NCBI GenBank assembly: GCA_963697475.1
Contig: CAVOOG010000002.1
Span: 3,038 to 67,037 of the forward strand
Direction of reading: 5' to 3'
Source: an uncultured Actinomycetota bacterium
GTDB lineage: Bacteria > Actinomycetota > Actinomycetes > Mycobacteriales > Mycobacteriaceae
DNA length: 64,000 bases
Under the pieces are notes generated by a model. That model saw nothing but the letters and a program-made list of their open reading frames with translations, ran no database searches and was not told the DNA's origin. Shown piece after piece: positions 49,371 to 63,499 of the stretch. The first letter of the stretch is position 1. Each line of letters begins with the position of its first letter. The position numbers and the translations under genes are program-made.

Positions 49371-49454
49371 CTGGGGTGGTCATGCTGTCGCGGCGGTGGT
49401 CATGCTGTCGCAGCAGGATCTTTGTTTCCACTACGTTCCTGCGTGCACTGGAGA

Positions 49455-50039
49455 CCACGGTGATGTAGTCCTGCCCCTTGCCTGCCGCCTTCTCATCGAC
49501 CCCGACGTGGACCGGTACGTTCAGCGGTTTGGCGGCCAGGCCGCGGGCCACGGCACGGTCCATCAGGTGCCACGCCTGGTCCCAGCTGACCCGCAGCAAC
49601 CTCGCGGCAGACGCTACGTCGCACGCGGCGAGCACGTCGATGGCCAGCCGCTCGAACAACGTCGTGAACCGCGAGTGCGGCTCGGCCCACGGCAACCCAA
49701 CCTGACGCACCCCGTGTTCGGGACAGTCCACCCGCAGCGGACTGGCATGCAGGAACGTCAAAAACGCACACGAGTCCACATGCCGCCACGCCCGCTCAGC
49801 CGAGTGGTCATAGACCGACAGCACGGCATCGCAATCCGGGCAGGCGAACCGGGTCCGGGCCGGATGGGCAACCCATACATCCACTCGCCCGTCGGTTGCT
49901 GACAGCTCGACCCGCCCCACCTTCCACGGAGTCTCCAGTCCCAGCAGATGGCGGTACAGCTCGGTGTCGCGCATACCCCACATCCTGCCGCTGACGCCCG
50001 TCACGCCCACATCGGACCCACGAAAAACCCGGAAGCGCC
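49455..50039 (-). mobile_element. Truncated ISL3-family element (left end plus 5' transposase from 49974)
   Basis: End GGCGCTTCC; CPDC...YDH..R.WRH, CPEHGV, VGVDEKA then breaks off. Confidence 0.85.
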
Positions 50040-50389
50040 TTTTTTCAGGAACGTGATGTCACGATCCTTCTCGGCGAGCTCAGCACGCAACCGCACCAAT
50101 TCGGCACGCTCGGCCGCCGACAGATCCCCATCGGGTGGGACCCCGCGTGCATCGGCGGCAGCCCCGTCCCGAACTCGTTCGGCAGCAACCCATTTGCGGA
50201 ACAGATTCTCGTGCACATTCAACTCTCGGGCAACCTCGGCGACCGAGCGGCCACCATCAATCACCCGCCGAGCAGCCTCCACTTTGAACTCCGGCGTAAA
50301 CGACCGACGAGTCCGAGACATCCCGACATCCTCCCAGCAGGACCCTGCGTCCCGCTATCTCAGGTGTCCACTCAAACTGGGGAAGCTCA
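50040..50389 (-). mobile_element. IS3-family left-end stub with orfA, copy 1
   Basis: TGAGCTTCCCC end at 50389; OrfA MSRTRRSFTPEFKVEAA; broken at the A-run after TTCCTG. Confidence 0.85.
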
Positions 50390-50497
50390 AAAAGCGCGGG
50401 TTCGGAAATCTGATATTCGGTACGTTCACCGGACTACGTCGATGAGGTCACGGCGGCCAGCTTCTCTAAAGCGTAGCACTTGTGCTATCTTTGTCGA

Positions 50498-50746
50498 GTG
50501 GAGACTGTGGGGCTACGCGAATTGCGCCAGAATGCTTCCGACCTCATTCGGCGTGTGGAAGAGGGCGAGGAAATTACGATCACCGTGGCAGGTAGGCCAG
50601 GTGCTCGGCTGGTGCCCGCCACACCGCGGGTGTGGCGGCGGTGGACCGACGTCGCCGAGCTGTTCGCCGGGCCCGCTGACCCCTCCTGGGATCTCGACCG
50701 TGGCGAGATAGCTCATGGCGTGCGCGATCCGTGGACGGCCCGGTGA
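50498..50746 (+). CDS. vapB: Phd/YefM-type antitoxin (VapB)
   Basis: VGLRELRQNASDLIRRVEEGEEITITVAGRP; TAGCAC-TT-GTGCTA inverted repeat at 50474-50487. Confidence 0.88.
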   Translation: METVGLRELRQNASDLIRRVEEGEEITITVAGRPGARLVPATPRVWRRWTDVAELFAGPADPSWDLDRGEIAHGVRDPWTAR

Positions 50747-51123
50747 GGGCGATCCTTGACACCAGCGCGGTGATCGCAGCGGATGTCGGCCCCCTCGATG
50801 GTGATCTCGCGATCAGCAGCGTGACGTTGGCCGAGCTGCATTTCGGCGTACTCGTGGCCAAGGAACGCGCTGTACGTGCAGAGCGGCTACGGCGACTTCT
50901 GGTGCTCCAACGCGCCTTTGACGCGCTACCGGTTGATGAGGCCGTAGCCGCTAGCTACGGCCAGATTGCTGCTGCGGTCGTGGATGTGGAACGTCAGCCA
51001 CGAGCACGCTCAATGGACCTGCTCATCGCAGCGACCGCTCACGCGCACTCGGCGAGGCTTTACACACGAAACGTCAGTGACTTCCACGGCCTTCACGACT
51101 TCGTCGACGTCGTCGCGGTGTAG
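50743..51123 (+). CDS. vapC: VapC PIN-domain toxin
   Basis: ILDTSAVI, SVTLAEL, DLLIAATA, LYTRNVSDF. Confidence 0.92.
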   Translation: MRAILDTSAVIAADVGPLDGDLAISSVTLAELHFGVLVAKERAVRAERLRRLLVLQRAFDALPVDEAVAASYGQIAAAVVDVERQPRARSMDLLIAATAHAHSARLYTRNVSDFHGLHDFVDVVAV

Positions 51124-51325
51124 TCCGTCTCAAGGTGCCTTTCCAGGAACCCTGATCCTGGACAGTGAGTCAGACATCGGACGAGATCCGATGTCCTGCA
51201 ATGTAATCGCTCCCTATCAGGGACCTCGTCGAACGATCCGCTGAGGTCCACCTCGACGCGGCAGTCGATGGTATCGGTGAGGGTGCTGCCGTCAACATGA
51301 ACGACCCTTTCGGTGATGATCAACC

Positions 51326-51682
51326 CGTCTCCAGCGCCGCCAGCTCGCCGCCAACAGCATTGGCAGACAAGCTGCTGCGCAACTGCTTTCCATCAGTCCG
51401 CAAAGCGTCACCGACAAGCTCGAATCGCGAAAGCTGGTCGGTATCAAAGTGGGTAGAGAATGGCGGCTCTCCCGCTGGCAATTCAACCCGGACAACGTGA
51501 CCGGCGCCTTACCAGATCTCGACGTCCTGCAGTCGTCGTTTCCCGGTGGACCGGTCAGCCTGTCGCGGTGGGTCATGCACCCCAACATCGAGTTTGATGG
51601 CCGTACCCCGCGTGACGAACTGGTCGCCCACGGCAGCGCATCGGTCATCAAGGTCGCACGAGCGCTGACTGCAGCCGGATGA
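51326..51682 (+). pseudogene. 5'-truncated HTH antitoxin-like gene
   Basis: AAAQLLSISPQSV...LVGIKVGREWRLSRWQF...FDGRTPRDEL; overlaps RES start. Confidence 0.55.
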
Positions 51683-51930
51683 TCAGACGGCTACGGCCAC
51701 CGGCGCGGCCGCTGCCGACCGTAGACAAAGATGCGACCTGGTACTGGGAACCGCCCGATGCCGCGGTGCGATGGGAATGGTGCCGCGTCTATCACCAGGA
51801 CGAATACGCGGCCGACGGTGCGGCCTTTCGCCAATTCGGGCCGCAAGCCCGTTTGGACCACCATCACGCTGCCGATCCGCCGCAGATCGACGCCAGCGGT
51901 CGACGCATCCTCTACGTCGGCGAGGACCTA
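51679..51930 (+). pseudogene. Truncated RES domain toxin
   Basis: WCRVYH...FRQFGPQARLDHH...ILYVGEDL then similarity lost. Confidence 0.65.
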
Positions 51931-51999
51931 CTGCGTACCGTATGTTGGACCGGCAGCACACAGCGCGCTTCCCGAGCAGGGCGCTGCGAATGCCGAGTT

Positions 52000-52579
52000 G
52001 GCCGTGGCCGCCGCAGCTCACCTGGCGGTGTCTACGAGCAGTCCAGACCAAGCTGTTCAACTACGCGCCAAGGGCTTCTAACTTCGGGCGAGGTCGCGGC
52101 GTGGCCTCCGCCGACCCACCAGTAGTACTTGCCGAAAGCACGGAACAACGCACGCGGCTCCTGATCACCCATCCACTCCGGATTGGTAGCGGTAACGTTC
52201 CGCGCGGCTCGGAATATCTCGTGGACGACGCGGGCGTACGCCTCCTCGGGATGGTCGCCGGGCTCTGGGATACCGAGGTGCGATCGGCCACGTGATCGGT
52301 GATCTGGATGGTTCCGGCCCGGTGCGGGTGTATGCGGCCGCCGCTGACGTTGACGACCTGCTCAGCGATCACGGGCTCCGGGAGGCGGGCTCCGACAAGA
52401 TTGCCAACGCGGTGATCTGGGTGGTCGATGACCTCGCCGTCGTACCGCGTTCCGACGCTGACTCCCACGCCGCGGCCTCCGTTGTGGCCGCTGTGGACCT
52501 GCTCGATGCCGGCGACCCTCGTGCGCAAGCCGCCGCCCGCAGCATCATCGAGAACGTATTGAGGGGCATCACCCGCTAG
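52000..52579 (+). pseudogene. Degenerate paralogue of the downstream type IV-like antitoxin
   Basis: C-terminal ANAVIWVVD...VVAAVDLLDAGDPRAQAAA parallels GNLTLRV...IAGVDLTEDTDTRTRTAG of 52641-53345. Confidence 0.4.
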
Positions 52580-52606
52580 CAGTAGGACTGCTACCAGCTG
52601 GTATTT

Positions 52607-52638
52607 ACACAACTATAGCGATATCGCTATAGTTGTGT
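52607..52638. promoter_or_regulatory. Perfect 32-bp palindrome overlapping a -10 box (putative operator)
   Basis: ACACAACTATAGCGAT|ATCGCTATAGTTGTGT; TATAGT at 52628-52633, 7 nt before ATG 52641. Confidence 0.75.
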
Positions 52639-52640
52639 TC

Positions 52641-53345
52641 ATGGATGAGCTGATTACTGCCGCCCAAGCCGCGCAGCGTCTAGGTGTGGCCCCTTCCCGC
52701 GTGCGTGCGCTCATCGCCCACGGCACGCTGACCGCGACGATGGCCGGCAACCAGTGGCTCATCGACGCCGACAGCCTGGATCGTCACCACGACCTGATGA
52801 GTGCCGGTGCCACCGGGCGCTCGTTCTCCCCGCGCATCGCCTGGGGTGCCGCAGCGCTGTGCGACGGCCGCCACGAAGGGCTCACCCCAACCGAACGCAC
52901 CCGCCTGCGCCACCGCCTGGCCAACGTGGGTGAGGGCGGCACCGATGTGTGTGCGCAGGTGCAGCGTTGGCTGTCGCGCCGGGCGCAGTCGGTGCATCGC
53001 TACAGGGTCGGTGAGCGCGACCTGGCGGAGCTTCTGAGCAGCAGCGGTGTCATGGCCACCGGGATCAGCGCCATCGACGCCTATAGTCTTGGGCTCGCCA
53101 CAGGTGGAGCCGCCGACGCCTATGTCAGCGACCGGACCCGGCAGAAGCTGGTGGACGACTTCGTCTTGATCGACAGTGCGCGAGGCAATCTCACGCTGCG
53201 GGTCACCGACGCCGACGTGTTCGACGCCGCTGTCGCACCGCGATTGATCGCCGGTGTCGACCTCACCGAGGACACCGACACCCGTACCCGCACAGCTGGC
53301 TGCAACCTCATCGGCGACGCGCTGCGCGCTGCCCGCAGGCCATGA
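52641..53345 (+). CDS. Excisionase-type HTH plus AbiEi-like domain (putative type IV antitoxin)
   Basis: LITAAQAAQRLGVAPSRVRALIAHGTL HTH; TGISA...DAYV...GNLTLRV. Confidence 0.65.
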   Translation: MDELITAAQAAQRLGVAPSRVRALIAHGTLTATMAGNQWLIDADSLDRHHDLMSAGATGRSFSPRIAWGAAALCDGRHEGLTPTERTRLRHRLANVGEGGTDVCAQVQRWLSRRAQSVHRYRVGERDLAELLSSSGVMATGISAIDAYSLGLATGGAADAYVSDRTRQKLVDDFVLIDSARGNLTLRVTDADVFDAAVAPRLIAGVDLTEDTDTRTRTAGCNLIGDALRAARRP

Positions 53346-54418
53346 TCCCGGTGCCTAAAAACCTCACTGCTGATAACGCTGCGCCGGTGGCGGCGATCGC
53401 CGCCATCACTGGCCAGTCAATGGCCGGTGCCACCGAACTGTTCTGCACCATCGCCGAATCCGCACCCGATGACACCCAGGCCAGCGCGGAGGACATCGGC
53501 GGTGCGGTGAACCGGATGTGCACCCGCGTCGGGCTGGCACCCGCGCTGGATCAGCTCGAACGCGACACGCATATCCACGCGTTGCGCGCACTGACTGCCG
53601 GGGATGCATCCACGATCACCCTCGGCGACTTGCGCGCGTGGGACACCATCCTGCGCGCCACCCCGGAGAAGGTTCCGACGGTGGAGCGGGAACCGGTGGT
53701 GCTGACACCGATGCCCGAGCATCAGGCGGCGATGTGGTTGACGTTGTTGGACTTCGAGGAGACCGACCCGCCGCCCTGGGTCCTCGTAGGTGGACAGATG
53801 ACCGCACTGCACCTGGCCGAGCACGGCGTCACCGAGCATCGCCCCACCGACGACGGCGACATGGTGGTCGGGGTCTGGACGCGCCGTGATGCGTTGCGCA
53901 GCACGGCGATCTACCTGACCGACAACGATTTCACCGAAAGCCCCACCGAGGACGGCTTCGGATACCGGTTCACCCGAGGTAGGACCGTCATTGATGTGAT
54001 GATCCCCGAGGGCCTCGACCGCCAGCAGCGCTATCCGACGACCAGCACGGGCCGCCGCGGCCTATCGGCAGGTGGCGGGAACCAGGCTCTGACCCGTGCC
54101 GAACGGGTGCCGGTGAACGTGGGCGGCCGGGTGGGTTATGTCCGCCGCCCGAACCTGTTGGGCGCACTGGTGGCGAAGGCGCATGCGCGGATCGTGGACA
54201 GCCGGGACCCGGAACGTCACTCTCAGGATCTCGTCGCGCTCGCGGGGGTGGCGCTACTCGACCCCAGAGCCGTGGTCAGTCAGGCACGCCCGGATGACCG
54301 CCGCGCGATCCGCTCCGCCCTGCGTCACCTTCCCGCCGGCCACCGGCTGCTGCGCCTGGCTGAAGACCCCGGCGGCGTTCACGCATTCCTGACCCGGCTG
54401 GGACAGTCACCCGGATAA
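53342..54418 (+). CDS. Nucleotidyltransferase-fold toxin (AbiEii/MenT-like) with N-terminal extension
   Basis: WVLVGGQMT.LH...RPTDDGD, IDVMIP, GALVAK, RHSQDL; ATGA overlap with upstream gene. Confidence 0.7.
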   Translation: MIPVPKNLTADNAAPVAAIAAITGQSMAGATELFCTIAESAPDDTQASAEDIGGAVNRMCTRVGLAPALDQLERDTHIHALRALTAGDASTITLGDLRAWDTILRATPEKVPTVEREPVVLTPMPEHQAAMWLTLLDFEETDPPPWVLVGGQMTALHLAEHGVTEHRPTDDGDMVVGVWTRRDALRSTAIYLTDNDFTESPTEDGFGYRFTRGRTVIDVMIPEGLDRQQRYPTTSTGRRGLSAGGGNQALTRAERVPVNVGGRVGYVRRPNLLGALVAKAHARIVDSRDPERHSQDLVALAGVALLDPRAVVSQARPDDRRAIRSALRHLPAGHRLLRLAEDPGGVHAFLTRLGQSPG

Positions 54419-55052
54419 GCCGGGATCACCGTGGATCGCCACGGGCACATTCCCCAGGGCCGCTTCGGCAGGTGCACCGCAAGCCGGATTGTGCGCCTGT
54501 CCGACGCTCCGACCAAGCGAAGCTGGTCGAATTGCCGATCAGCAGCGTGAGCGCCTTTTGCATCCGGTACAGATACTTGGCGTGCCGCTGCGGCGAGTGC
54601 TGAGTTTTGCGCGGGAAACCATCCGCTGACCCCTCTGCCTTGCGAAACCACGGACCGTTAGAAGCATCTGGCAGGGTTGGCCCCCATCTCAGCATGCAGA
54701 GAAGGGACTTCAGAATGTCGTCAGTGCAGCCGCGCACGTGGAGATGCTGCGAACTCGAACGACGCTCCCCGGAATGGGGTATCGCGTTTCAACGCAACGA
54801 CAGGGTGCCGCATGGACAGGCGCTGCTCGTGTGCGACGCGTGGTCGGCGTGCATCATGGTCGCGCACTCCACTGCTGAACGGTTGGGCCGCGAGGACAGT
54901 GCGGGCCTGTGGACGGCGATGGCCTGGGCCCGACCCGGTGTGCCAGGCCTTGTTGGACTACCTGCGTTCGACGGTGACGTGACGGAAGTTCGGCCGCTGC
55001 CGAGCAGTCTCAGTGATCTCGTCGAGGACGCTACGAGGCTTGCCAAGTCGTT

Positions 55053-55403
55053 TGAGCTTCCCCAGTTTGAGTGGACACCTGAGATAGCGGGACGCAGGGT
55101 CCTGCTGGAAGGATGTCGGGATGTCTCGGACTCGTCGGTCGTTTACGCCGGAGTTCAAAGTGGAGGCTGCTCGGCGGGTGATTGATGGTGGCCGCTCGGT
55201 CGCCGAGGTTGCCCGAGAGTTGAATGTGCACGAGAATCTGTTCCGCAAATGGGTTGCTGCCGAACGAGTTCGGGACGGGGCTGCCGCCGATGCACGCGGG
55301 GTCCCACCCGATGGGGATCTGTCGGCGGCCGAGCGTGCCGAATTGGTGCGGTTGCGTGCTGAGCTCGCCGAGAAGGATCGTGACATCACGTTCCTGAAAA
55401 AAA
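55053..55403 (+). mobile_element. IS3-family left-end stub, copy 2 (inverted relative to copy 1)
   Basis: Near-identical reverse complement of 50040-50389; broken at the same A-run. Confidence 0.85.
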
Positions 55404-55555
55404 CTCAAGACAACTCTCAACGATCTAGCGACCAAGGATCGCTAGCGGCAGTCGCCGCGGCCATGAGCGCCGCCGATGCCGAGACGCTGACTGACTGGCG
55501 ATCGGAGACCGCGGACTGGGCTGCGGTCGACACCGATCGTGACGGTGCTCAGTGA
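55121..55555 (+). CDS. In-frame fusion of IS3 OrfA (94 aa), 13-aa linker and antitoxin C-terminus (37 aa)
   Basis: Ends LAAVAAAMSAADAETLTDWRSETADWAAVDTDRDGAQ, identical to the C-terminus of 60348-60593. Confidence 0.8.
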   Translation: MSRTRRSFTPEFKVEAARRVIDGGRSVAEVARELNVHENLFRKWVAAERVRDGAAADARGVPPDGDLSAAERAELVRLRAELAEKDRDITFLKKTQDNSQRSSDQGSLAAVAAAMSAADAETLTDWRSETADWAAVDTDRDGAQ

Positions 55556-55970
55556 CCGTCACGGTCGCACCCGGCTCGGTCGTGTGGGTCACCCTCGATC
55601 CCACCGAGGGACGCGAGCAAGCCGGCCGCCGGCCCGCCGTGGTCGTGGCCTCCCTTGGCTACTTGGCGGCAGTTACCGAATTGGCCATCGTCGTTCCCGC
55701 GACGACCTCCGACCGCGGATGGCCGCAGCACGTACAACTCACCGGAGCGGCACTCACCCTTCCCCGGCCGACCTTCGCCATGACGGAACAGCCGCGCACC
55801 CTCAGCAGGCAGCGCATCGCCAGCGTCGCCGGAAGCGTCGACAGCACCTGCCTGGCCTCGATACGCCGCTGGCTCGACGACTTCCTGCACGACCCTCATT
55901 AGTCACAGTGACGAAAACGGAGACCTCGGAGTGGATTCCATCGATGTCGGCACATTTCTTCACCGACGCC
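55442..55970 (+). repeat. 529-bp direct repeat, copy 1 (copy 2 at 60480-61008)
   Basis: Aligned by eye at constant offset 5038; one synonymous ATC/ATA difference seen. Confidence 0.9.
55552..55902 (+). CDS. mazF: MazF/PemK toxin, copy 1
   Basis: GSVVWVTLDPTEGREQAGRRPAVVV...VVPATT...AMTEQPRTLSRQRI. Confidence 0.9.
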   Translation: MTVTVAPGSVVWVTLDPTEGREQAGRRPAVVVASLGYLAAVTELAIVVPATTSDRGWPQHVQLTGAALTLPRPTFAMTEQPRTLSRQRIASVAGSVDSTCLASIRRWLDDFLHDPH

Positions 55971-56026
55971 AACGCGGTCTATTCCCGACCTCGACAAGCG
56001 CTTACTTTATAAGTAGTTTAGACGTC

Positions 56027-56503
56027 ATGGATGTGGTGTCGTTCTCCGATTTGCAGTTGCGCGGCAAGGCCACGGTCGAAGCGTGGCTGCGCACGTCGGC
56101 GAACCGCGTTCTGGTGGTGCGTCGTCGTGATGCCGAGGATCTGGTGCTGACCACGGCGTCAAGGGCAGAGCAGGCGCGTGAGACGTCCTCGGTGACCGCA
56201 CGACTGTTCGTCGCGTTGATGCAGCACGATCCGCATGTGCGGGATCTGGTGACCGACGTGGTGCCCGAGGTGTTTCCGTGGGTGGCGTTCCTGTCCCGCG
56301 AGGAGGTCCGCGAGTTCGTCGTCGAGTTGGTGTCGACGATGAAGGCCGCCGAATCGATCGACAACCCGGCTCCGGTGGCCCAGGTGATCGACTCTTGGCG
56401 GCACACCGCCGAGGTGCTGGCCGATCCCGAACTGGCAGCCGTCCTGTCGGCGCCCAGCGACGCGGATTTCGGTCCGGTGCCAGAGCCGGGAATCCGCAGG
56501 TAG
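56027..56503 (+). CDS. Putative antitoxin with Phd-like N-terminus
   Basis: VSFSDLQ...LVVRRRDAEDLVL; FPWVAFLS...SWRHTAEVLADPEL; TAGTTT 7 nt upstream. Confidence 0.65.
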   Translation: MDVVSFSDLQLRGKATVEAWLRTSANRVLVVRRRDAEDLVLTTASRAEQARETSSVTARLFVALMQHDPHVRDLVTDVVPEVFPWVAFLSREEVREFVVELVSTMKAAESIDNPAPVAQVIDSWRHTAEVLADPELAAVLSAPSDADFGPVPEPGIRR

Positions 56504-56857
56504 GTGGCACCCAAGCGCGGGGATCGCGTCGCGCCACCCGCCGGTGGCGGCGAATGGGATCTGCGGTTCGCCACCAGCGAGGCCGCCAAGGGCTGGGAGG
56601 CGCTGTGCCAGGCCGCCGCGGCCAACACCGCGGCGGCCTGGCACGAACTGCGGACACGGCCGGAGCGACCGGCGCCGACCAGCCGCCACCATCAGCTCAA
56701 GAGCCGCCTGGCCACCGCGGCTCACCGCGGCGTCGACATGGAGCAGTGGCAGTACGAGGTGACCAGCGCCGGCCGGATCTGGTATCTCGTCGACGCCGCC
56801 AACCGAACCCTATGGCTGAGGCACGCCGGCCCCGGACATCCGAAGGACACCGAGTGA
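56504..56857 (+). CDS. Putative RelE-like toxin
   Basis: WDLRFATSEAAKGW...HHQLK...QWQYEVTSAGRIWYLVD...GHP; abuts upstream gene. Confidence 0.6.
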   Translation: MAPKRGDRVAPPAGGGEWDLRFATSEAAKGWEALCQAAAANTAAAWHELRTRPERPAPTSRHHQLKSRLATAAHRGVDMEQWQYEVTSAGRIWYLVDAANRTLWLRHAGPGHPKDTE

Positions 56858-57084
56858 GCAGCGGCCCGCAACCGTTGCCGGGCGGCGGTACGCGCGCCGA
56901 ACTGGGATTTCTCCGCGTGATTTCGTGAGGGGGGCGGTACGGGCTGACGGGGGCTGGGGGCTGGAGTTTTGTGCTGGCGGGGTGCATATTCTTGAGTCGG
57001 AAAACGTGCCCACAGGATGGGTCGTTGTTGAAGCAAGCGCTCCGGCCGCAGGGTCGGGGCGTTTCGCTTTTGTAGGGTCTGGGG

Positions 57085-57273
57085 ATGCCGCAGCGGAGTA
57101 CTGCCCTGCTGCCGCCGGCGAGGTTGCAGCCCTACTGGGATTTCTGGACGGCGGGTGGTGTCACCGCACCGCCGAGCGACGATGCGATCGCCGCGCTGTA
57201 TGTGTGGCAGGTCGGTATGTGCTCGGCCTGGCATGAGGTGCCGGCCCACATCACCACCCAACCGCGCCCGTAG
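57085..57273 (+). pseudogene. Possible Abi-family N-terminal remnant
   Basis: LPPARLQPY...AALYVWQVGMCSAWHEV. Confidence 0.4.
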
Positions 57274-57621
57274 CAGCAGGTTTGGTTGATCCTGCTGCCG
57301 CCCGTGTTTGGCGGGGCTAGTAACGGACGGGTGGGTCCCAATCGGCGGTGTACAGCGAGCGCCAGCCGGCGGGGGAATAGGCGGCTGTGGAGCCATTGGG
57401 CGTCGTTATGACGAGCGCGCCACCAGCGACAATCTTCCACTCACTGGCCTGGGGTGTCTGTCGCGGTCGGTGTCGTCGGGGCCTGTTTCGACGAAGAGGA
57501 ACTGTCTTTTCTCAGCCATGGGGCTGACCCTCCCATAGAGTTCGGACACCACGGTCAATTAGGACGTCTAGGGAGTCCTGGAGCCGGGAGCTGTTCTCCC
57601 CTGCGCGCAAATGAATGAGCG

Positions 57622-58146
57622 TCAGATAGTCCCGCCGACAGCGGCCTGCCGGCGAAAGTGGCGTTGCGCTCTCACCAGTTCCTTCGAGCCGAAGGTGGCG
57701 TAGACGCCGCTCTGCTGGCCGGGCGCTTGGTTTCCGATGTAGAGAACGTTTTCGCGGTTGGTGTGTGGTCCCCACCCCTGGCTGTGGCTCACGGCGACAA
57801 CTGAGCCGCGTTGCACCTGTTCCCACCAGAACCATGCGTCTCGGCTTATCCCGGTGGCGTCGCCGTAGATCGAGACCATGGCCTTGCTGCCGCGTTGCGC
57901 GTGTTGATAGACGTTCTGGACGTAGAGCAGCGTCCATCCGTGACCGGTGGTGTACTGGTGAAAGGCCGCCCAGGATTGCGCTGCTGCGGCGTCGCGTGCT
58001 GGTTGCGGCCGGAAGATAAACCACACCACGACGCCTACGGCGATCAAGAACGTCAGTGTCAACACGTTGACGTACCGCTCATCATCAGTCCGACTGTAAA
58101 GGTGGCTACCGACGTTGCAGATCTCTCTGCCCTTGCGCGCCCCCAC
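57622..58146 (-). CDS. Hypothetical single-pass membrane protein (start uncertain)
   Basis: Hydrophobic VLTLTFLIAVGVVVWFIF followed by a soluble domain. Confidence 0.55.
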   Translation of the reverse strand: MGARKGREICNVGSHLYSRTDDERYVNVLTLTFLIAVGVVVWFIFRPQPARDAAAAQSWAAFHQYTTGHGWTLLYVQNVYQHAQRGSKAMVSIYGDATGISRDAWFWWEQVQRGSVVAVSHSQGWGPHTNRENVLYIGNQAPGQQSGVYATFGSKELVRAQRHFRRQAAVGGTI

Positions 58147-58200
58147 ACGCCGGGCCGTACTCGTGCGCCGCAGTTATCCAGCGGCTCCTAAACTTATCGC

Positions 58201-58497
58201 ATGGGGGATTTAGATGTTTGCGGCGAAGGCTTGCAGGCACTGGCTGGGCAGTGCTCCGCTGACGCGTCACGGTTAGCCACTGAGATTCCTGCCGGAATGG
58301 CCGGCCCGCCAGCTCAAGCAACAGCGGCGGCGGTAAGAAGCGCGTACATGGCCATCGTGGCTTCGGCGGCGGCCCTGGCGGCGCGTGTACAGGGCACTGG
58401 CGACAAGCTGACTGTGGCGGCGACGCAGTACGTGAGCACAGATGAAACGTCCGCGCAGCGTTTGTCTTCGCTGGGCGGCGGGCGGGCGCAGGTGTAG
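58201..58497 (+). CDS. Type VII secretion substrate-like (WXG/EspC-like) small helical protein
   Basis: 98 aa, Ala-rich, C-terminal YVSTDETSA (YxxxD/E secretion-signal-like). Confidence 0.55.
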   Translation: MGDLDVCGEGLQALAGQCSADASRLATEIPAGMAGPPAQATAAAVRSAYMAIVASAAALAARVQGTGDKLTVAATQYVSTDETSAQRLSSLGGGRAQV

Positions 58498-58569
58498 ATG
58501 CCTGCCGCTGTCGGTGCGGGGCTGCCGAGCTTGTCGCAGATCGTGTCCTGGGACACCGGGCACCTGTGA
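58498..58569 (+). pseudogene. N-terminal stub of a type VII effector-like gene
   Basis: MPAAVGAGLPSLSQIVSWDTGHL*. Confidence 0.45.
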
Positions 58570-58868
58570 TCGCTCCCGGCGACATCGCACCACGCAGCGA
58601 CAGCGAGCACGAGCTCTACGTTGCCGTTCTGTCCAATGCGATCCATCTCGCCGCTGATACCGGACGTGTGATCACATGCCCGTTCATTCCCGGCCGGCTG
58701 CCGGACGACGCCATGTCGATGGTCATCGCTGTCGAGCAACCCGACGGCACCCTTCTACCGGAACTTGTGCAGTGGCTCCCCAGGGCTGCGCTCGACGAAC
58801 CAATCGGCACCATCGGCGTCGCCGCCCTGCGCGAGACTACGGCGATCGTGACCGCCCTCATCTCCTAG
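58566..58868 (+). CDS. Orphan MazF/PemK-like toxin
   Basis: IAPGDI...YVAVLSN...VITCPF...LLPELVQWLPRAALDEPIG. Confidence 0.5.
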   Translation: MIAPGDIAPRSDSEHELYVAVLSNAIHLAADTGRVITCPFIPGRLPDDAMSMVIAVEQPDGTLLPELVQWLPRAALDEPIGTIGVAALRETTAIVTALIS

Positions 58869-59039
58869 TCCTGGCCCCGACTCCCCTGCCAACTCGCACC
58901 TCGTGAGCACGCACCATTACCAGTTATGAGCCGCGGTGATTGCGGCATTTTCTGTTGTCTTCACAAACTCCGAACAAATGCCATGGTCACCGCCCCTGAC
59001 CAGCGCAGACACGCCGAATCCCACCAGCTCCGATCTACG

Positions 59040-59420
59040 GCTGCAGTAGCTAGCGGGACTGCGGGCGGAAGAACTCCGCCTGGTCGATGTCGGGGACGTG
59101 AGCACGCTCGACGACGGTTCCGCCGTGGTCAATGTGAAAGGCAAAGGCGGCAAGGAACGCAACGCCCCTGTCGGGATGGCCAGCTTCCGCACCGCTATTG
59201 GTCGGTCGAGATGGTGAACGAATCACGCGTGGCACGCTGCAATCTCGCATCAAGCGAGCGTTCAAGCGTGCTCGGCCATATGCACGGCCAGCTCTGGTAC
59301 ACGGTCGCCGGCATACCTATCCCACTGAGCTCGCCACCTCGAATGTCAGCGTCTATACGCTCATGAAGCTTCTCGGCCATGAATCAATGGCGATATCGCA
59401 GCGCTACGTGACGGCAGCGG
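59040..59420 (+). pseudogene. Tyrosine recombinase remnant
   Basis: GLRAEEL...VKGKGGKER; VHGRRHTY...MKLLGHESMAISQRY in different frames. Confidence 0.8.
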
Positions 59421-59571
59421 GCCCTCGCCCACACCAATTCTCGATCCGGACGTGCACCGAAATCATTGCCGCCAACCGCGCGCCCGAACAGCACGTGTCC
59501 GCCACTGGGCTGTTCTTATTGGCCACAAATCAGGCTTGGCAATAGCCACTATTCGGGCTATATTGAGCAGC

Positions 59572-59847
59572 ATGAGATCTGTACCTCTAGGTGAGGCGAA
59601 GGACAAACTGTCGGCCCTAGTTGACGATGCTCAATCCACTCACGACATAATTGCGATCACCAAGCATGGTCGACCAGCTGCTGTGCTCATGTCCGCCGAC
59701 GACCTAGAGTCACTGCAGGAGACTATCTTTTGGCTGTCACGGCCGGGCATCCACGACGACATCGCAGCGGCTGAACGGGAGTACCGCGAGGGGACGACCG
59801 TAAGCGGCGATCTGCTTCGTGAAGAATTCGGTCTGCCGCCGCAGTGA
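59572..59847 (+). CDS. Phd/YefM antitoxin
   Basis: VPLGEAKDKLSALVD...ITKHGRPAAVLMSADDLESLQETI. Confidence 0.9.
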   Translation: MRSVPLGEAKDKLSALVDDAQSTHDIIAITKHGRPAAVLMSADDLESLQETIFWLSRPGIHDDIAAAEREYREGTTVSGDLLREEFGLPPQ

Positions 59848-60125
59848 CAACTCCGGGCCAGCCGTACCACGTCGAGGCTGCGGATTCCGCCCGCCGAGAC
59901 ATGCAGCGTCTGCCGGGTAAAGTCGCCACGGCGATCGTCGAGTTCATCACCGGGCCGTTGGCTGGCAACCCCCAACGGCTCAGCAAGCCTCTCCGAGGCG
60001 ATCTGGACGGCTATCGCAGCGCCCGTCGAGGCGACTACCGGGTCGTGTTCCGCATCGACGAGGATAAGCACACCGTGGTCATCGTCGGCGTCAAGCATCG
60101 CGCCCATATCTACCGCCCACGCTGA
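59844..60125 (+). CDS. relE: RelE/ParE toxin
   Basis: ARRDMQRL...NPQRLSKPLRGDLDGYRSARRGDYRVVFRI...HRAHIY. Confidence 0.9.
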   Translation: MTTPGQPYHVEAADSARRDMQRLPGKVATAIVEFITGPLAGNPQRLSKPLRGDLDGYRSARRGDYRVVFRIDEDKHTVVIVGVKHRAHIYRPR

Positions 60126-60347
60126 CGTCGGCCCGTCACCAACCTCGACGGGCGGAGTTCGCGCCTTCGATGTAGTCGATCGCACCTTCGAGTGACGCCG
60201 TCAAGTGTTCGGCGCAGACCGTCGCGCACAGTTTGCTTGCGGCGATGGCGCTGCCGGTTGGGCGCTTGGCACTCCATCTGACCATAGCGACGGCTTTCGG
60301 CCTACGCGGCGTATCCCTAGTTGGGATACTTTTAGTATTCTGGCCGT

Positions 60348-60593
60348 ATGGCTGACGTCACGACGATCAAGGTGACCAAACCGCTGCGCGACCGCATCAG
60401 CGCGGCTGCCGCGCAACGCGCTCAAACGGTGCAGAGTTTCCTGGAGCAGGTGATGGACGAGCATGACCGGCACGAGCGTCTAGCGGCAGTCGCCGCGGCC
60501 ATGAGCGCCGCCGATGCCGAGACGCTGACTGACTGGCGATCGGAGACCGCGGACTGGGCTGCGGTCGACACCGATCGTGACGGTGCTCAGTGA
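60348..60593 (+). CDS. RHH-type antitoxin (intact)
   Basis: TTIKVTKPLRDRI; GTATCCC-N5-GGGATAC inverted repeat at 60311-60329; TATTCT 6 nt upstream. Confidence 0.8.
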   Translation: MADVTTIKVTKPLRDRISAAAAQRAQTVQSFLEQVMDEHDRHERLAAVAAAMSAADAETLTDWRSETADWAAVDTDRDGAQ

Positions 60594-61008
60594 CCGTCAC
60601 GGTCGCACCCGGCTCGGTCGTGTGGGTCACCCTCGATCCCACCGAGGGACGCGAGCAAGCCGGCCGCCGGCCCGCCGTGGTCGTGGCCTCCCTTGGCTAC
60701 TTGGCGGCAGTTACCGAATTGGCCATCGTCGTTCCCGCGACGACCTCCGACCGCGGATGGCCGCAGCACGTACAACTCACCGGAGCGGCACTCACCCTTC
60801 CCCGGCCGACCTTCGCCATGACGGAACAGCCGCGCACCCTCAGCAGGCAGCGCATAGCCAGCGTCGCCGGAAGCGTCGACAGCACCTGCCTGGCCTCGAT
60901 ACGCCGCTGGCTCGACGACTTCCTGCACGACCCTCATTAGTCACAGTGACGAAAACGGAGACCTCGGAGTGGATTCCATCGATGTCGGCACATTTCTTCA
61001 CCGACGCC
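60480..61008 (+). repeat. 529-bp direct repeat, copy 2
   Basis: Matches 55442-55970. Confidence 0.9.
60590..60940 (+). CDS. mazF: MazF/PemK toxin, copy 2
   Basis: Protein identical to 55552-55902. Confidence 0.9.
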   Translation: MTVTVAPGSVVWVTLDPTEGREQAGRRPAVVVASLGYLAAVTELAIVVPATTSDRGWPQHVQLTGAALTLPRPTFAMTEQPRTLSRQRIASVAGSVDSTCLASIRRWLDDFLHDPH

Positions 61009-61137
61009 GCGTCACTCTCACCTTTTCTCAATGTGTGTTTCCGCGGGCATAAGGCCGATCCTTACCTGCGGAGCAGGTCAGATACAGCGCCCCAGAAAAT
61101 TACCGCTGTTGCCATCCAACGACGTCATCGGCGTGAC

Positions 61138-61840
61138 TCAGCGCAGAAGGGGGGCCAGGCGTGGGTCCTGCCACCACCGCTGCCCCAGCACGGCGGTGGC
61201 CGTCCACAGCGACACCAGGGGTACCGCCGGGCCTTGCATACGCACCGGCGGTTGCCCGTCGCTGGTGGCCAGTGTGAGCGTCCAGCTGTCCAGCTCCGGG
61301 TAGTAACCGGTGATATCGCCGTACCAGAGGCTTGCCAGGCCTGACCCGCCGTCCCAGATCAGACGGTCGGTGGTGCTCCACAGATGGACGCTTTGGTGGC
61401 CGCGCCAGCGGGGCTGGGCATCACGGCGCGCGGCGACCTTGCGGCGCCGGTTGATGGCGGCGTTCACCGCCAGCGCTCCCACCATCACCGCCGGGCGGCC
61501 GACGACGAAGTAGTCGCTTCGTGCGTACGTTCCGTCACCCGCCGTAGAGGAAACTCAGGGTCACGTCGGCTTCGAGTAGCCCGTGTTCGTCCTCGCCGAG
61601 GAGGGGGCCGAAGATGGCGATTTCCGGCGGATTGTGACCGGCAAGGAAGGCCTTGGCGCTGTGGCGTGCGTGGTTCCACCACCACTGCCACGGATCGCGT
61701 ACTGTCTGCACAGTCCCCCGCTGTTCGGAGCGAGGAGGTTGGGGCATGCGCGGTGCCGCCGCAGGCGACGGTGCTGCCGGTAGCACGCAAAGATCATCGC
61801 TCGACCCTGCGGGGCCGGTTCGGAGCTGCTCGTCCCACCA
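61138..61840 (-). pseudogene. Frameshifted hypothetical protein
   Basis: ...TLSFLYGG and DGTYARSDYFVVGRPAVMVGALAVN join if one G near 61540 is removed. Confidence 0.5.
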
Positions 61841-62229
61841 CATGTGCCCAGTATCGAGCAGCGGTCCGACAGATAGCGACGCGGCAAGCGTGTCGGAACG
61901 AGCGCCCGCCGAGTGTTGATGTGCCCGCACGTTCGTCGAATCCGCCGGCGCGTCGTCGGTCGCCCGTAACGGCGCCGAGGATCTCGTCTGGGCCAAGAGT
62001 CAGGCGTTGGATGCGATCGCCGAGGCTGAGGAGGCGCAATTCGCTGTCGGGAAGACCTTTCGGTCACCGACCGGTCGATGGTCCCTCTGCTTCTTCGCGG
62101 GGCGCAGGAGGCCCGGCTGGCGCAGGCGCAGGAGTTGGCCGCGCAGATCGGTTCCCAGGCGCAGCATCTCGCCGCGATCGACAAGACGATCGCCGGCAAG
62201 ATCACCGCTGCGGTTGCCCCGCTCCGCGA

Positions 62230-62449
62230 GCCATCGGGGCCGGCACCGACGTCGCGATCGAGACCGCCGACCTTGTCCCGATGCGCTCCGACCCCCTCGA
62301 TGTTCCCATTGCGTTGCGCATCGGCCGGGGAACCTTGCGCAAGATGCGTCAGAACCTGGGGTGGGTCGTGGGCTACAACGTGATCGCACTCCCGATCGCC
62401 GCTGGCGTCTTCCAGCCTGCCTTCGGACTGGTGCTGCGCCCGGAGATAG
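62230..62449 (+). pseudogene. C-terminal fragment of a heavy-metal P-type ATPase
   Basis: AIGAGTDVAIETADLV...RKMRQNLGWVVGYNVIALPIAAG. Confidence 0.85.
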
Positions 62450-62704
62450 GTGAGAACCCCGAAACCCTGATCAGCCAGGGCTTGGCGGGTTCAGGCCACA
62501 GCGTCTGCGAAGGGGGTGGGCAATGAGGTCGAGATAGCAATGGACATGGGAGCTAGCTTCCCCGAAGCTCGCGCCGACCTCCTGGACTATGGGCTGGAAG
62601 GACCGTTCTTTATCGAATCTTCACAGAACGACTAAGACAGCCCTACGCAACGCCGCAAGGCTGGCAGGTGAAGATCGACAGGTTGATCCACGAAAGGAAC
62701 TGTT

Positions 62705-63499
62705 GTGAACAAGACAAGGACTGTGGTGACCGGGGTGGCTGCGCTGGCCGCGGTGGCCGCCCTCGGGGCGTGTAGCAACTCGGCGACCAAAGAGGCGACG
62801 TCGTCCTCGGCTTCGTCCTCGGCTTCGTCGTCGACCCAGACGTCGTCGACGGCGCCGGCGGTCGCGCATAACCAGGCCGATATGCAGTTCGCGCGCATGA
62901 TGCTCCCGCATCATCGGCAGGCGGTTCAGATGAGCGACATGATTCTGGCCAAGCAGGGCATCGACCCGCGGGTGGTGAACTTGGCCAAGCAAATCAAGGC
63001 CGCCCAAGGCCCGGAGATCGAGCAGATGCAAGGCTGGCTGAATCAGTGGGGCATTCCCGGCATGCCGGGAATGAACGGTATGCCCGGGATGGGCGAGACG
63101 CCGGGGAACATGCCGTCGGATCACGGTGGCATGCACGGCTCCGACACCGCTGCCGCATCACCCACGACCACGATGATGCCCAGTGGGTCGATGATGCCCA
63201 GTGGGTCGATGATGCCCAGTGGGTCGATGATGCCAGGCATGCCAGGAATGGATGACATGCCCGGTATGGAGGGGATGATGTCGCAGGCCGATATGGATGC
63301 GCTGCAGAACGCCCGGGGGGTCGAGGCCAGCAAGCTGTTCTTGACCCAGATGATCAAGCACCACCAGGGCGCAATCACTATGGCGCAGAACGAGATCAAG
63401 AACGGCCAGTTCCCTGACGCTGTCGCGCTGGCCAAGTCGATCGCCAGCAGCCAGCAGAAGGAGATCGACACCATGAACCAGATCCTCAGCTCACTGTAG
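62705..63499 (+). CDS. DUF305 Met-rich lipoprotein (copper-resistance associated)
   Basis: Lipobox LGACS; FARMMLPHHRQAV and FLTQMIKHHQGAI; Met-rich linker. Confidence 0.9.
   Translation: MNKTRTVVTGVAALAAVAALGACSNSATKEATSSSASSSASSSTQTSSTAPAVAHNQADMQFARMMLPHHRQAVQMSDMILAKQGIDPRVVNLAKQIKAAQGPEIEQMQGWLNQWGIPGMPGMNGMPGMGETPGNMPSDHGGMHGSDTAAASPTTTMMPSGSMMPSGSMMPSGSMMPGMPGMDDMPGMEGMMSQADMDALQNARGVEASKLFLTQMIKHHQGAITMAQNEIKNGQFPDAVALAKSIASSQQKEIDTMNQILSSL
63173..63234 (+). repeat. 18-bp coding tandem repeat x3.4 (MMPSGS)
   Basis: ATGATGCCCAGTGGGTCG repeated. Confidence 0.9.

Follow-up and report, generated by a model that had tools for sequence, protein, structure and literature searches.

A MazE antitoxin tail joined to an IS3 OrfA head in a mycobacterial toxin-antitoxin island: a probable accidental in-frame fusion of recent origin

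The stretch of DNA analysed here, called the window, spans 64,000 nt (64% G+C) of the genome of an uncultured Actinomycetota bacterium of the family Mycobacteriaceae (GenBank assembly GCA_963697475.1, contig CAVOOG010000002.1, positions 3,038 to 67,037). According to its sequence and the table of its open reading frames (ORFs), it carries on the forward strand, at 55121-55555, a 144-aa ORF closed by TGA, in which parts of a transposition protein and of an antitoxin are read in one frame. The chimera splits exactly into 94 residues of OrfA from an insertion sequence (IS) of the IS3 family (residues 1-94), 13 linker residues (95-107) derived from another mobile element, unclassified but IS-like and here called X, and 37 antitoxin residues (108-144), which are residues 45-81 of an 81-aa antitoxin of the MazE type encoded at 60348-60593. 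A Shine-Dalgarno (SD) sequence, GGAAGGA, lies 7 nt upstream of the ATG. The 3' end of the ORF shares 4 nt (GTGA, 55552-55555) with an intact mazF of the PemK/MazF family that starts at GTG (55552-55902, + strand, 116 aa), and an identical GTGA at 60590-60593 couples the intact mazE to a second mazF (60590-60940). In profile searches residues 3-83 of the chimera match HTH_Tnp_1 of Pfam (E 6.6e-17), and NCBIfam assigns the chimera to the IS3 transposase N-terminus (transpos_IS3) and the downstream ORF to MazF. A single-sequence AlphaFold model, which adds little (that of monomeric MazE is one meaningless helix), features a three-helix helix-turn-helix (HTH; helices 10-21, 27-34 and 38-60, predicted local distance difference test score, pLDDT, 83-86), and a long helix starting at residue 69 and holding the OrfA heptads L75, L82 and I89.

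The two 116-aa MazF proteins are letter-for-letter identical, match PemK_toxin (PF02452, E 3.7e-19) at 69 bits against a cut-off of 23.1 bits, and find E. coli MazF in the PDB (5ck9, E 1.2e-11). The intact 81-aa antitoxin (60348-60593, + strand) is made of a ribbon-helix-helix (RHH) N-domain and a tail. It scores 24.6 bits with RHH_10, just under the 27-bit cut-off, and residues 2-73 align with MazE7 of M. tuberculosis (6a6x_C, E 0.004). The tail following the RHH domain (residues 1-44) is a conserved block of this antitoxin family, RLAAVA..W[RS]xE[TS]..W, and is retained by the chimera at 37 of 37 positions. The remnant mazE', in frame with orfA, consists of the last 37 codons plus the stop (55442-55555, + strand) and encodes the post-RHH tail, presumed to bind the toxin; the break falls after the RHH domain, and the chimera has neither an RHH- nor an AbrB-type head, the place of which is taken by HTH_Tnp_1. 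The three-part split of the ORF, the GTGA overlap with a toxin identical to that at 60590, and an intact antitoxin 5 kb off that could act in trans, as well as source of the tail, were all present in the original prediction, and this anatomy is borne out. A mazEF paralogue resides elsewhere in the genome, on contig C14 (271238-271849; 77% DNA identity, MazF 82% identical at the protein level). Its antitoxin has a similar tail, LAAVATAIRGTSAPTLSTWRSETAEWSAVDD, and cross-neutralisation is therefore conceivable. A further copy on contig C8 was rejected as a third mazEF, being an unmerged overlap of the downstream locus: C8 differs from the window contig, C2, by single-base indels and transitions, all towards the contig end and none within 59540-62900.

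The head of the chimera belongs to an IS3-family stub (55053-55402, + strand), which keeps the left inverted repeat (IRL, TGAGCTTCCCCAGTTTGAGTGGACACC, at 55053), the SD GGAAGGA, and orfA codons 1-94 up to the A-run of the frameshift site. The stub covers 350 of the 1304 bp of the element; orfB and the right inverted repeat (IRR) are missing, the latter being found only in a full-length copy on contig C17 (25137-26440), to which the stub is 97% identical. Relatives of the OrfA part occur in Mycobacterium, Mycolicibacterium, Gordonia and Rhodococcus. A second, inverted left stub lies at 50040-50391, and is 99.7% identical (one mismatch) to the left end of the first (55051/55053-55402). Both stubs end after TTCCTGAAAAAA. 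At this point the full-length copy, in which orfA and orfB are both intact, reads on as ..AAAAAAGTATCGGCGTACTTTGCG (FLKKVSAYFAAQQHR*), and it has its orfB in the -1 frame as well as an IRR; the common break thus corresponds to the A6G programmed-frameshift site. Sequences 3' of the A-run of the stub at 55053-55402 are foreign to IS3, there is no A6G -1 frameshift into a DDE OrfB, and the stub is unable to transpose. The full-length IS3 is itself preceded by a head-to-tail partial duplicate of its own left end (227 nt, C17:24910-25136).

The 13 residues between OrfA and the MazE tail had been taken as an anonymous linker. Their number was right, but they are encoded by the 3' tip of a further mobile element which had been inserted in mazE. 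By BLAST of 55300-55560 against 60 related genomes, window positions 55399-55445 have seven matches of 85-91% identity, spread over five genomes of the same genus, and in all seven the matched sequence lies just 3' of the stop of one 537-aa ORF, or of its remnant. The ORF is multicopy and patchily distributed: of 121 genomes of the genus, 19 have it, the largest number of matches in one genome being 12. X itself is defined by three 99%-identical copies in one relative (G108, L039-L041) and measures 1730 bp, with left end ACCAGTGAGGCTTCGCC and right end ..GCCTGAAAACTCAGGAC..CTAGCAACCGAGGTTCGCTAG, finishing ..TCGCTAG; another copy is found in the relative G005 (L023:2013-3671). No inverted repeats and no target duplication were found at the ends of the three G108 copies, and the 537-aa protein has no relative in Pfam, NCBIfam or PDB. 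X may represent an undescribed IS family. In one copy (L007) the terminal stem shows a compensatory change, CTAGGG..CCCTAG; the terminal 17 nt (CAACCGAGGTTCGCTAG) are found in tandem twice more past the right end in L040 (G108:C10), and relatives often host just 3'-anchored remnants of 113-303 nt.

In the window only the last ~43-46 nt of X are left (55403-55445, + strand), which encode the linker TQDNSQRSSDQGS and include the 3' terminal sequence ..CTGAAAACTCARGAC..CTAGCGACCAAGGWTCGCTAG with the terminal hairpin, CTAGCGA (55425-31)-N7-TCGCTAG (55439-45). The tip ends ..GATCGCTAG|CGGCAG, and the intact mazE reads ..GAGCGTCTAG|CGGCAG (CGTCTAG|CGGCAG). The last CTAG of the tip coincides with the native CTAG of mazE and the two sequences agree from there on, so that X sits at this CTAG and its insertion point is ambiguous by 4 nt. 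In the protein the site falls between the RHH domain and the tail. Other sources of the linker were discarded: it matches neither the IRR of IS3 (CGTGTCCACTTTTTCTGGGGAACCTCA) nor the inverted repeat of ISL3 elements, and the idea of a filler templated from the hairpin by non-homologous end joining was dropped once the match to X was found.

The joint between IS3 and X (55393-55403, + strand) is CCTG followed by seven A residues. Native IS3 reads here TTCCTGAAAAAAG, the A6G slippery site (in longer context CGTTCCTGAAAAAAGTATC), native X reads GCCTGAAAACTCAAG, where TGA is the stop of the X ORF (in longer context GCAGCCTGAAAACTCAAGAC), and the window reads CGTTCCTGAAAAAAACTCAAGAC. CCTG(A)n at the break is thus common to both elements. 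By a rough estimate, a joint at a shared 8-mer would be met by chance in about 1e-5 of cases for elements of 1.3 and 1.7 kb, and the joint resembles the outcome of a deletion at short homologies or of strand slippage. The run of A residues would be mutationally unstable. As read from the sequence, a -1 slip at 55397-55403 gives OrfA(1-94)+LKTTLNDLATKDR*: the frame ends 13 codons on, at a TAG of the X hairpin, the tail is lost, and a product made of OrfA only is left, so that some of the product would be tail-less.

The upstream mazE'-mazF unit is part of a true repeat. Repeat A, of 529 nt, occurs at 55442-55970 (+ strand; mazE', mazF and 68 nt downstream) and at 60480-61008 (+ strand; including mazF 60590-60940), with an offset of 5038 and a single difference, at 55818. 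Segment B (55971-60479, + strand) lies in between, and contains other toxin-antitoxin (TA) pairs, an integrase remnant, a Phd/ParE pair and the 5' 132 nt of the intact mazE. The joints were checked in independent assemblies reached by exact-protein look-ups. In GCA_011620645.1, contig WOYS01000028.1 matches window positions 50342-55496 at 99.98% (one mismatch) and ends 55 nt inside repeat A, and WOYS01000007.1 corresponds to 55916-60534, comprising B and, on either side of it, 55 nt of A. Repeat A forms a 529-nt contig of its own in GCA_011640815.1, and in Logan contigs of SRR10568510, SRR10568503 and SRR10568511 the break comes 30 nt inside A or inside the IS3 stub. This is how true repeats show up in de Bruijn assemblies, hence all four joints of the A-B-A structure are confirmed, and the chimeric ORF is genuine DNA. 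The genome of the window is a 22-contig draft of the long-read type, in which contig ends overlap others over 7-10 kb at 99.7-99.8% identity (C2 ends, C8:34666-44472, C4:1-6951), mostly with single-base indels. These overlaps being unmerged, the assembly overstates gene copy numbers, and reading frames close to contig ends cannot be relied on. Contig C8 and three retrieved contigs (L014, L013, L012) end or switch neighbour at about 59517-59540, at the 3' end of the integrase remnant (59198-59545) and just upstream of the Phd/ParE pair; this boundary is rearranged or strain-variable. Longer contigs of ERZ25039601 and GCA_049663985.1 feature a plain single-copy Phd-ParE-MazE-MazF array.

A second form of the locus was met in a Logan contig of ERR13093740 (L011, 1084 nt), which matches the window at 54981-55970 and then at 61009-61102, the flank of the second repeat. 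From left to right the contig consists of the left flank, the IS3 stub, the X tip, A and the right flank; B is missing, and with it one repeat, for a total of 5038 bp. The fusion ORF is identical to that of the window, with no difference. MazF carries G56E and A66P, resulting from four clustered G-to-N changes (55718, 55728, 55747, 55767), one of which matches the C14 paralogue. Nine homologues from the genus have G, A, N or D at position 56 and mostly P at position 66; both substitutions are within natural variation, and the notion that this MazF is inactivated is not supported. To judge from the sequence, the B-less form is what recombination of the two A repeats with each other would yield, or else the state preceding the gain of B. 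The contig passes four potential branch points unbroken, which suggests a strain lacking B as well as the inverted stub. The evidence for this form is one contig, possibly from a thinly covered sample, and exact look-ups of the flank genes returned none from ERR13093740, so that the missing segment-B genes there are uninformative.

We consider it likely that the chimera is a genuine and very recent accidental in-frame fusion, resulting from three ordinary rearrangements in a TA island, ridden with ISs, of a Mycobacterium. A segment ending in mazE-mazF would have been duplicated first, giving rise to the two 529-nt repeats 5038 bp apart. X (about 1.7 kb, with its 537-aa ORF) would then have entered the upstream mazE copy at CTAG, as its retained end attests; such an insertion could be borne, since an intact second mazE was still there. 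Finally, a deletion would have joined the A6G site of the upstream IS3 to the similar CCTGAAAA near the 3' end of X, the subterminal CCTG(A)n to which IS3 is found fused, and taken away IS3 orfB, almost all of X and the 5' half of mazE. Seen in this way, the chimera is what an insertion and a deletion left behind rather than a clean domain swap, a point missing from the original prediction. Of the three frames through the linker only one is open, and two junction phases must fit, so the chance prior for an open OrfA-linker-MazE frame is about one in nine; the open frame by itself is not statistically remarkable, and it would be a matter of luck that OrfA and the MazE tail are both in phase with the one frame of the X tip that is open. 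One difference in 529 nt points to a very recent duplication, too recent (0-1 differences over the repeat) for the sequence to show selection. There is no sign that selection has shaped or kept the chimera, which most probably arose by accident within the last few generations of the lineage. No other protein with this tail on a different head was found in a collection of 5.8 billion proteins, and the fusion was found in no other species representative genome, which fits a one-off accident.

Several observations weigh against this scenario. The A7 run at the joint is longer than the run of IS3 (A6) or of any X copy (A4-A5), which implies either an exchange out of register or a lost local X copy with a longer run; a simple in-register exchange did not take place, and slippage, or a longer local run in X, must be assumed. 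The donor is deduced from relatives, and no X copy is left in this genome, where tblastn detected only a distant 116-aa fragment on contig C19. The order of the three steps, and the origin of the A-B joint by tandem duplication, are inferred. Last, should the ERR13093740 strain truly be devoid of an intact mazE, the chimera may be of real use to it, which speaks against its being no more than a by-product.

The chimera may instead be a dead remnant, either because it is not made or because it does not bind the toxin, and the upstream MazF would be silent, or held in check by the intact MazE or the C14 paralogue. Such an outcome is favored by the occurrence of an identical tail on the intact MazE in cis-proximity, by the surroundings of IS fragments and broken TA genes, and by the loss of the RHH dimer of the native antitoxin, with its two tails positioned on the MazF dimer. 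A sigma-70 scan of the region revealed no consensus promoter and no terminator. Yet mycobacterial promoters seldom fit the two-hexamer sigma-70 consensus, which makes the scan weak evidence, and IRLs of IS3-family elements (IS911, IS2, IS3) normally carry the promoter of the element; transcription of the chimera would come from the IRL, or from readthrough. The IS3-X joint shows no unusual folding (z -1.1), and a search of Rfam gave a chance match only. MazE binds the MazF dimer by its tail, and inhibition of E. coli MazF in vitro is obtained with C-terminal MazE peptides by themselves; no RHH domain is therefore needed for the tail to bind. The apparent existence of a B-less allele also argues against an inert ORF. 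On balance, we regard the dead remnant as a somewhat unlikely outcome.

The opposite view is that of a functional, selected antitoxin with swapped domains, which is expressed from the IRL, dimerises through the zipper, neutralises MazF by the tail and is autoregulated by OrfA-type binding to the IRL, the TA having been wired to IS3 regulation. IS3-family OrfA proteins dimerise via a zipper and bind the inverted repeats, the site of the promoter of the element. The chimera retains the HTH, three heptads of the OrfA zipper and the whole post-RHH tail, in addition to the IRL and a good SD, and the idea of a TA under IS promoter and inverted repeat control, originally put forward as a possible newborn regulatory circuit, is coherent with these parts. 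By analogy, the layout could be that of a generic type II antitoxin able to neutralise MazF, since a putative DNA-binding domain, a dimerising helix and a complete, presumably toxin-binding tail would all be kept. If made from the IRL promoter and the SD, the chimera would probably still sequester the MazF encoded by the coupled gene. The kept GTGA coupling is in line with this view, as is the ERR13093740 contig, in which fusion and mazF are joined straight to the right flank without B and the intact mazE, and MazF is not obviously dead (G56E at a position occupied by G, A, N or D; A66P, the family consensus). Against it, no sigma-70-type promoter was recognized, an open frame would arise by chance in about one case in nine, the event is too recent to have left a signature of selection, slippage at the A7 run makes the tail prone to be lost, and the B-less form is a lone Logan contig, maybe of a thinly covered sample, for which the flank genes of the run were not retrieved. 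Moreover, the C14 paralogue and the intact MazE could neutralise in trans; in this genome the chimera would be redundant with the intact MazE 5 kb downstream, which is able to cover both copies of MazF. Functionality under selection is, all in all, unlikely.

A more elaborate role may be imagined for the chimera, as a working antitoxin with a transposase-regulator head, which would hold MazF by the tail while bound to the IS3 ends, and possibly heterodimerise with OrfA or OrfAB of the full-length IS3 via the shared zipper. MazF release would be coupled to IS3 activity, slippage at the A7 run would work as a switch, and the chimera would be the only cognate antitoxin wherever the 5-kb segment has been lost by recombination of the 529-nt repeats. 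We take this to be a rather improbable scenario. That repeats were wrongly joined in the long-read draft is scarcely credible, since the unmerged contig ends with their single-base indels and the density of repeats in the region are outweighed by two independent short-read-type assemblies and several Logan contigs showing every joint, by k-mer overlaps which fit true repeats, and by the position of the joint in the CCTG(A)n shared by both elements, at which no assembler would make a join.

The inverted IS3 stub (50040-50391, - strand) is cut after the same A-run by the inverted repeat, GGCGCTTCCGGGTTTTTCG, of an ISL3-family fragment (about 49426-50039), recognized by Zn_ribbon_ISL3 and HTH_Tnp_ISL3 in Pfam and by transpos_ISL3 in NCBIfam. 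This inverted repeat adjoins A/T-rich stretches of 8-10 nt in six of six places in the genome (window 50031-50039; C1:234896, C1:227378, C12:356731, C20:403395, C20:544420), the flanks being CTGAAAAAA, TTGTTTGTTT, GAAATTCT, GGAATTCCA, CAGAAAAAGT and GTGAAAAAC. The break of the inverted stub is accounted for by the insertion at the A-run of an ISL3 element with a preference for A/T-rich targets. A single truncation event for both stubs is not needed, since ISL3 preference and homology to X each account for a break at the A-run; a common origin of the two breaks is possible. IS3 slippery sites may be preferred targets of ISL3 elements in high-G+C genomes.

Shuffling of antitoxin heads and tails is known from comparative surveys, but it is rare to see the underlying events themselves. 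The locus described here would be a case of new antitoxin architecture caught in the act, in which IS insertion at a domain boundary and a short-homology deletion swapped the head of MazE, the toxin gene being still coupled. Two natural forms seem to exist, with and without an intact back-up antitoxin, and provide a natural experiment on the question whether a tail on a foreign dimeric head suffices in vivo. Should the chimera be inert, the locus would be one more scar in a decaying TA island.

The module is a MazEF whose antitoxin head was swapped by IS traffic, and the toxin is an ordinary MazF. As in MazEF7 of M. tuberculosis (PDB 6a6x), and in RHH-type MazE in general, the antitoxin gene lies upstream of, and overlaps, a PemK/MazF toxin gene, and the conserved post-RHH tail, presumably toxin-binding, is shared with the intact antitoxin of the window. 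In the chimera, in contrast, the RHH domain is replaced by the HTH and zipper of an IS3 OrfA plus 13 foreign residues, and operator recognition must consequently be different or lost. OrfA proteins of the IS3 family, as those of IS911 and IS3, consist of an HTH and a leucine zipper and end just past the A6G frameshift site. Residues 1-94 of the chimera conform to this scheme (HTH_Tnp_1, heptads L75-L82-I89), and the IRL and the ribosome-binding site are intact, but the last OrfA residues (VSAYFAAQQHR in the C17 copy), orfB and the IRR are missing, and A6G has become A7. Modular type II antitoxins carry unrelated DNA-binding domains on similar toxin-binding tails. The principle is the same, a toxin-binding tail on a different DNA-binding head, yet these are established families, whereas the chimera is a single event, days old by its look, with a transposase regulator as head. 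No transposase-antitoxin fusion was found described in a limited search of the literature. A parallel in mode of formation is offered by IS-made fusions and deletions in decaying mycobacterial genomes, which likewise arise from the insertion of an IS in a gene followed by deletion at short similar sequences; as in such IS-rich genomes, remains of IS3, ISL3 and X are found here, together with numerous disrupted genes nearby. Unlike the usual IS scars, however, the ORF left behind is open, keeps modules of both parents, and is still coupled to a live toxin gene.

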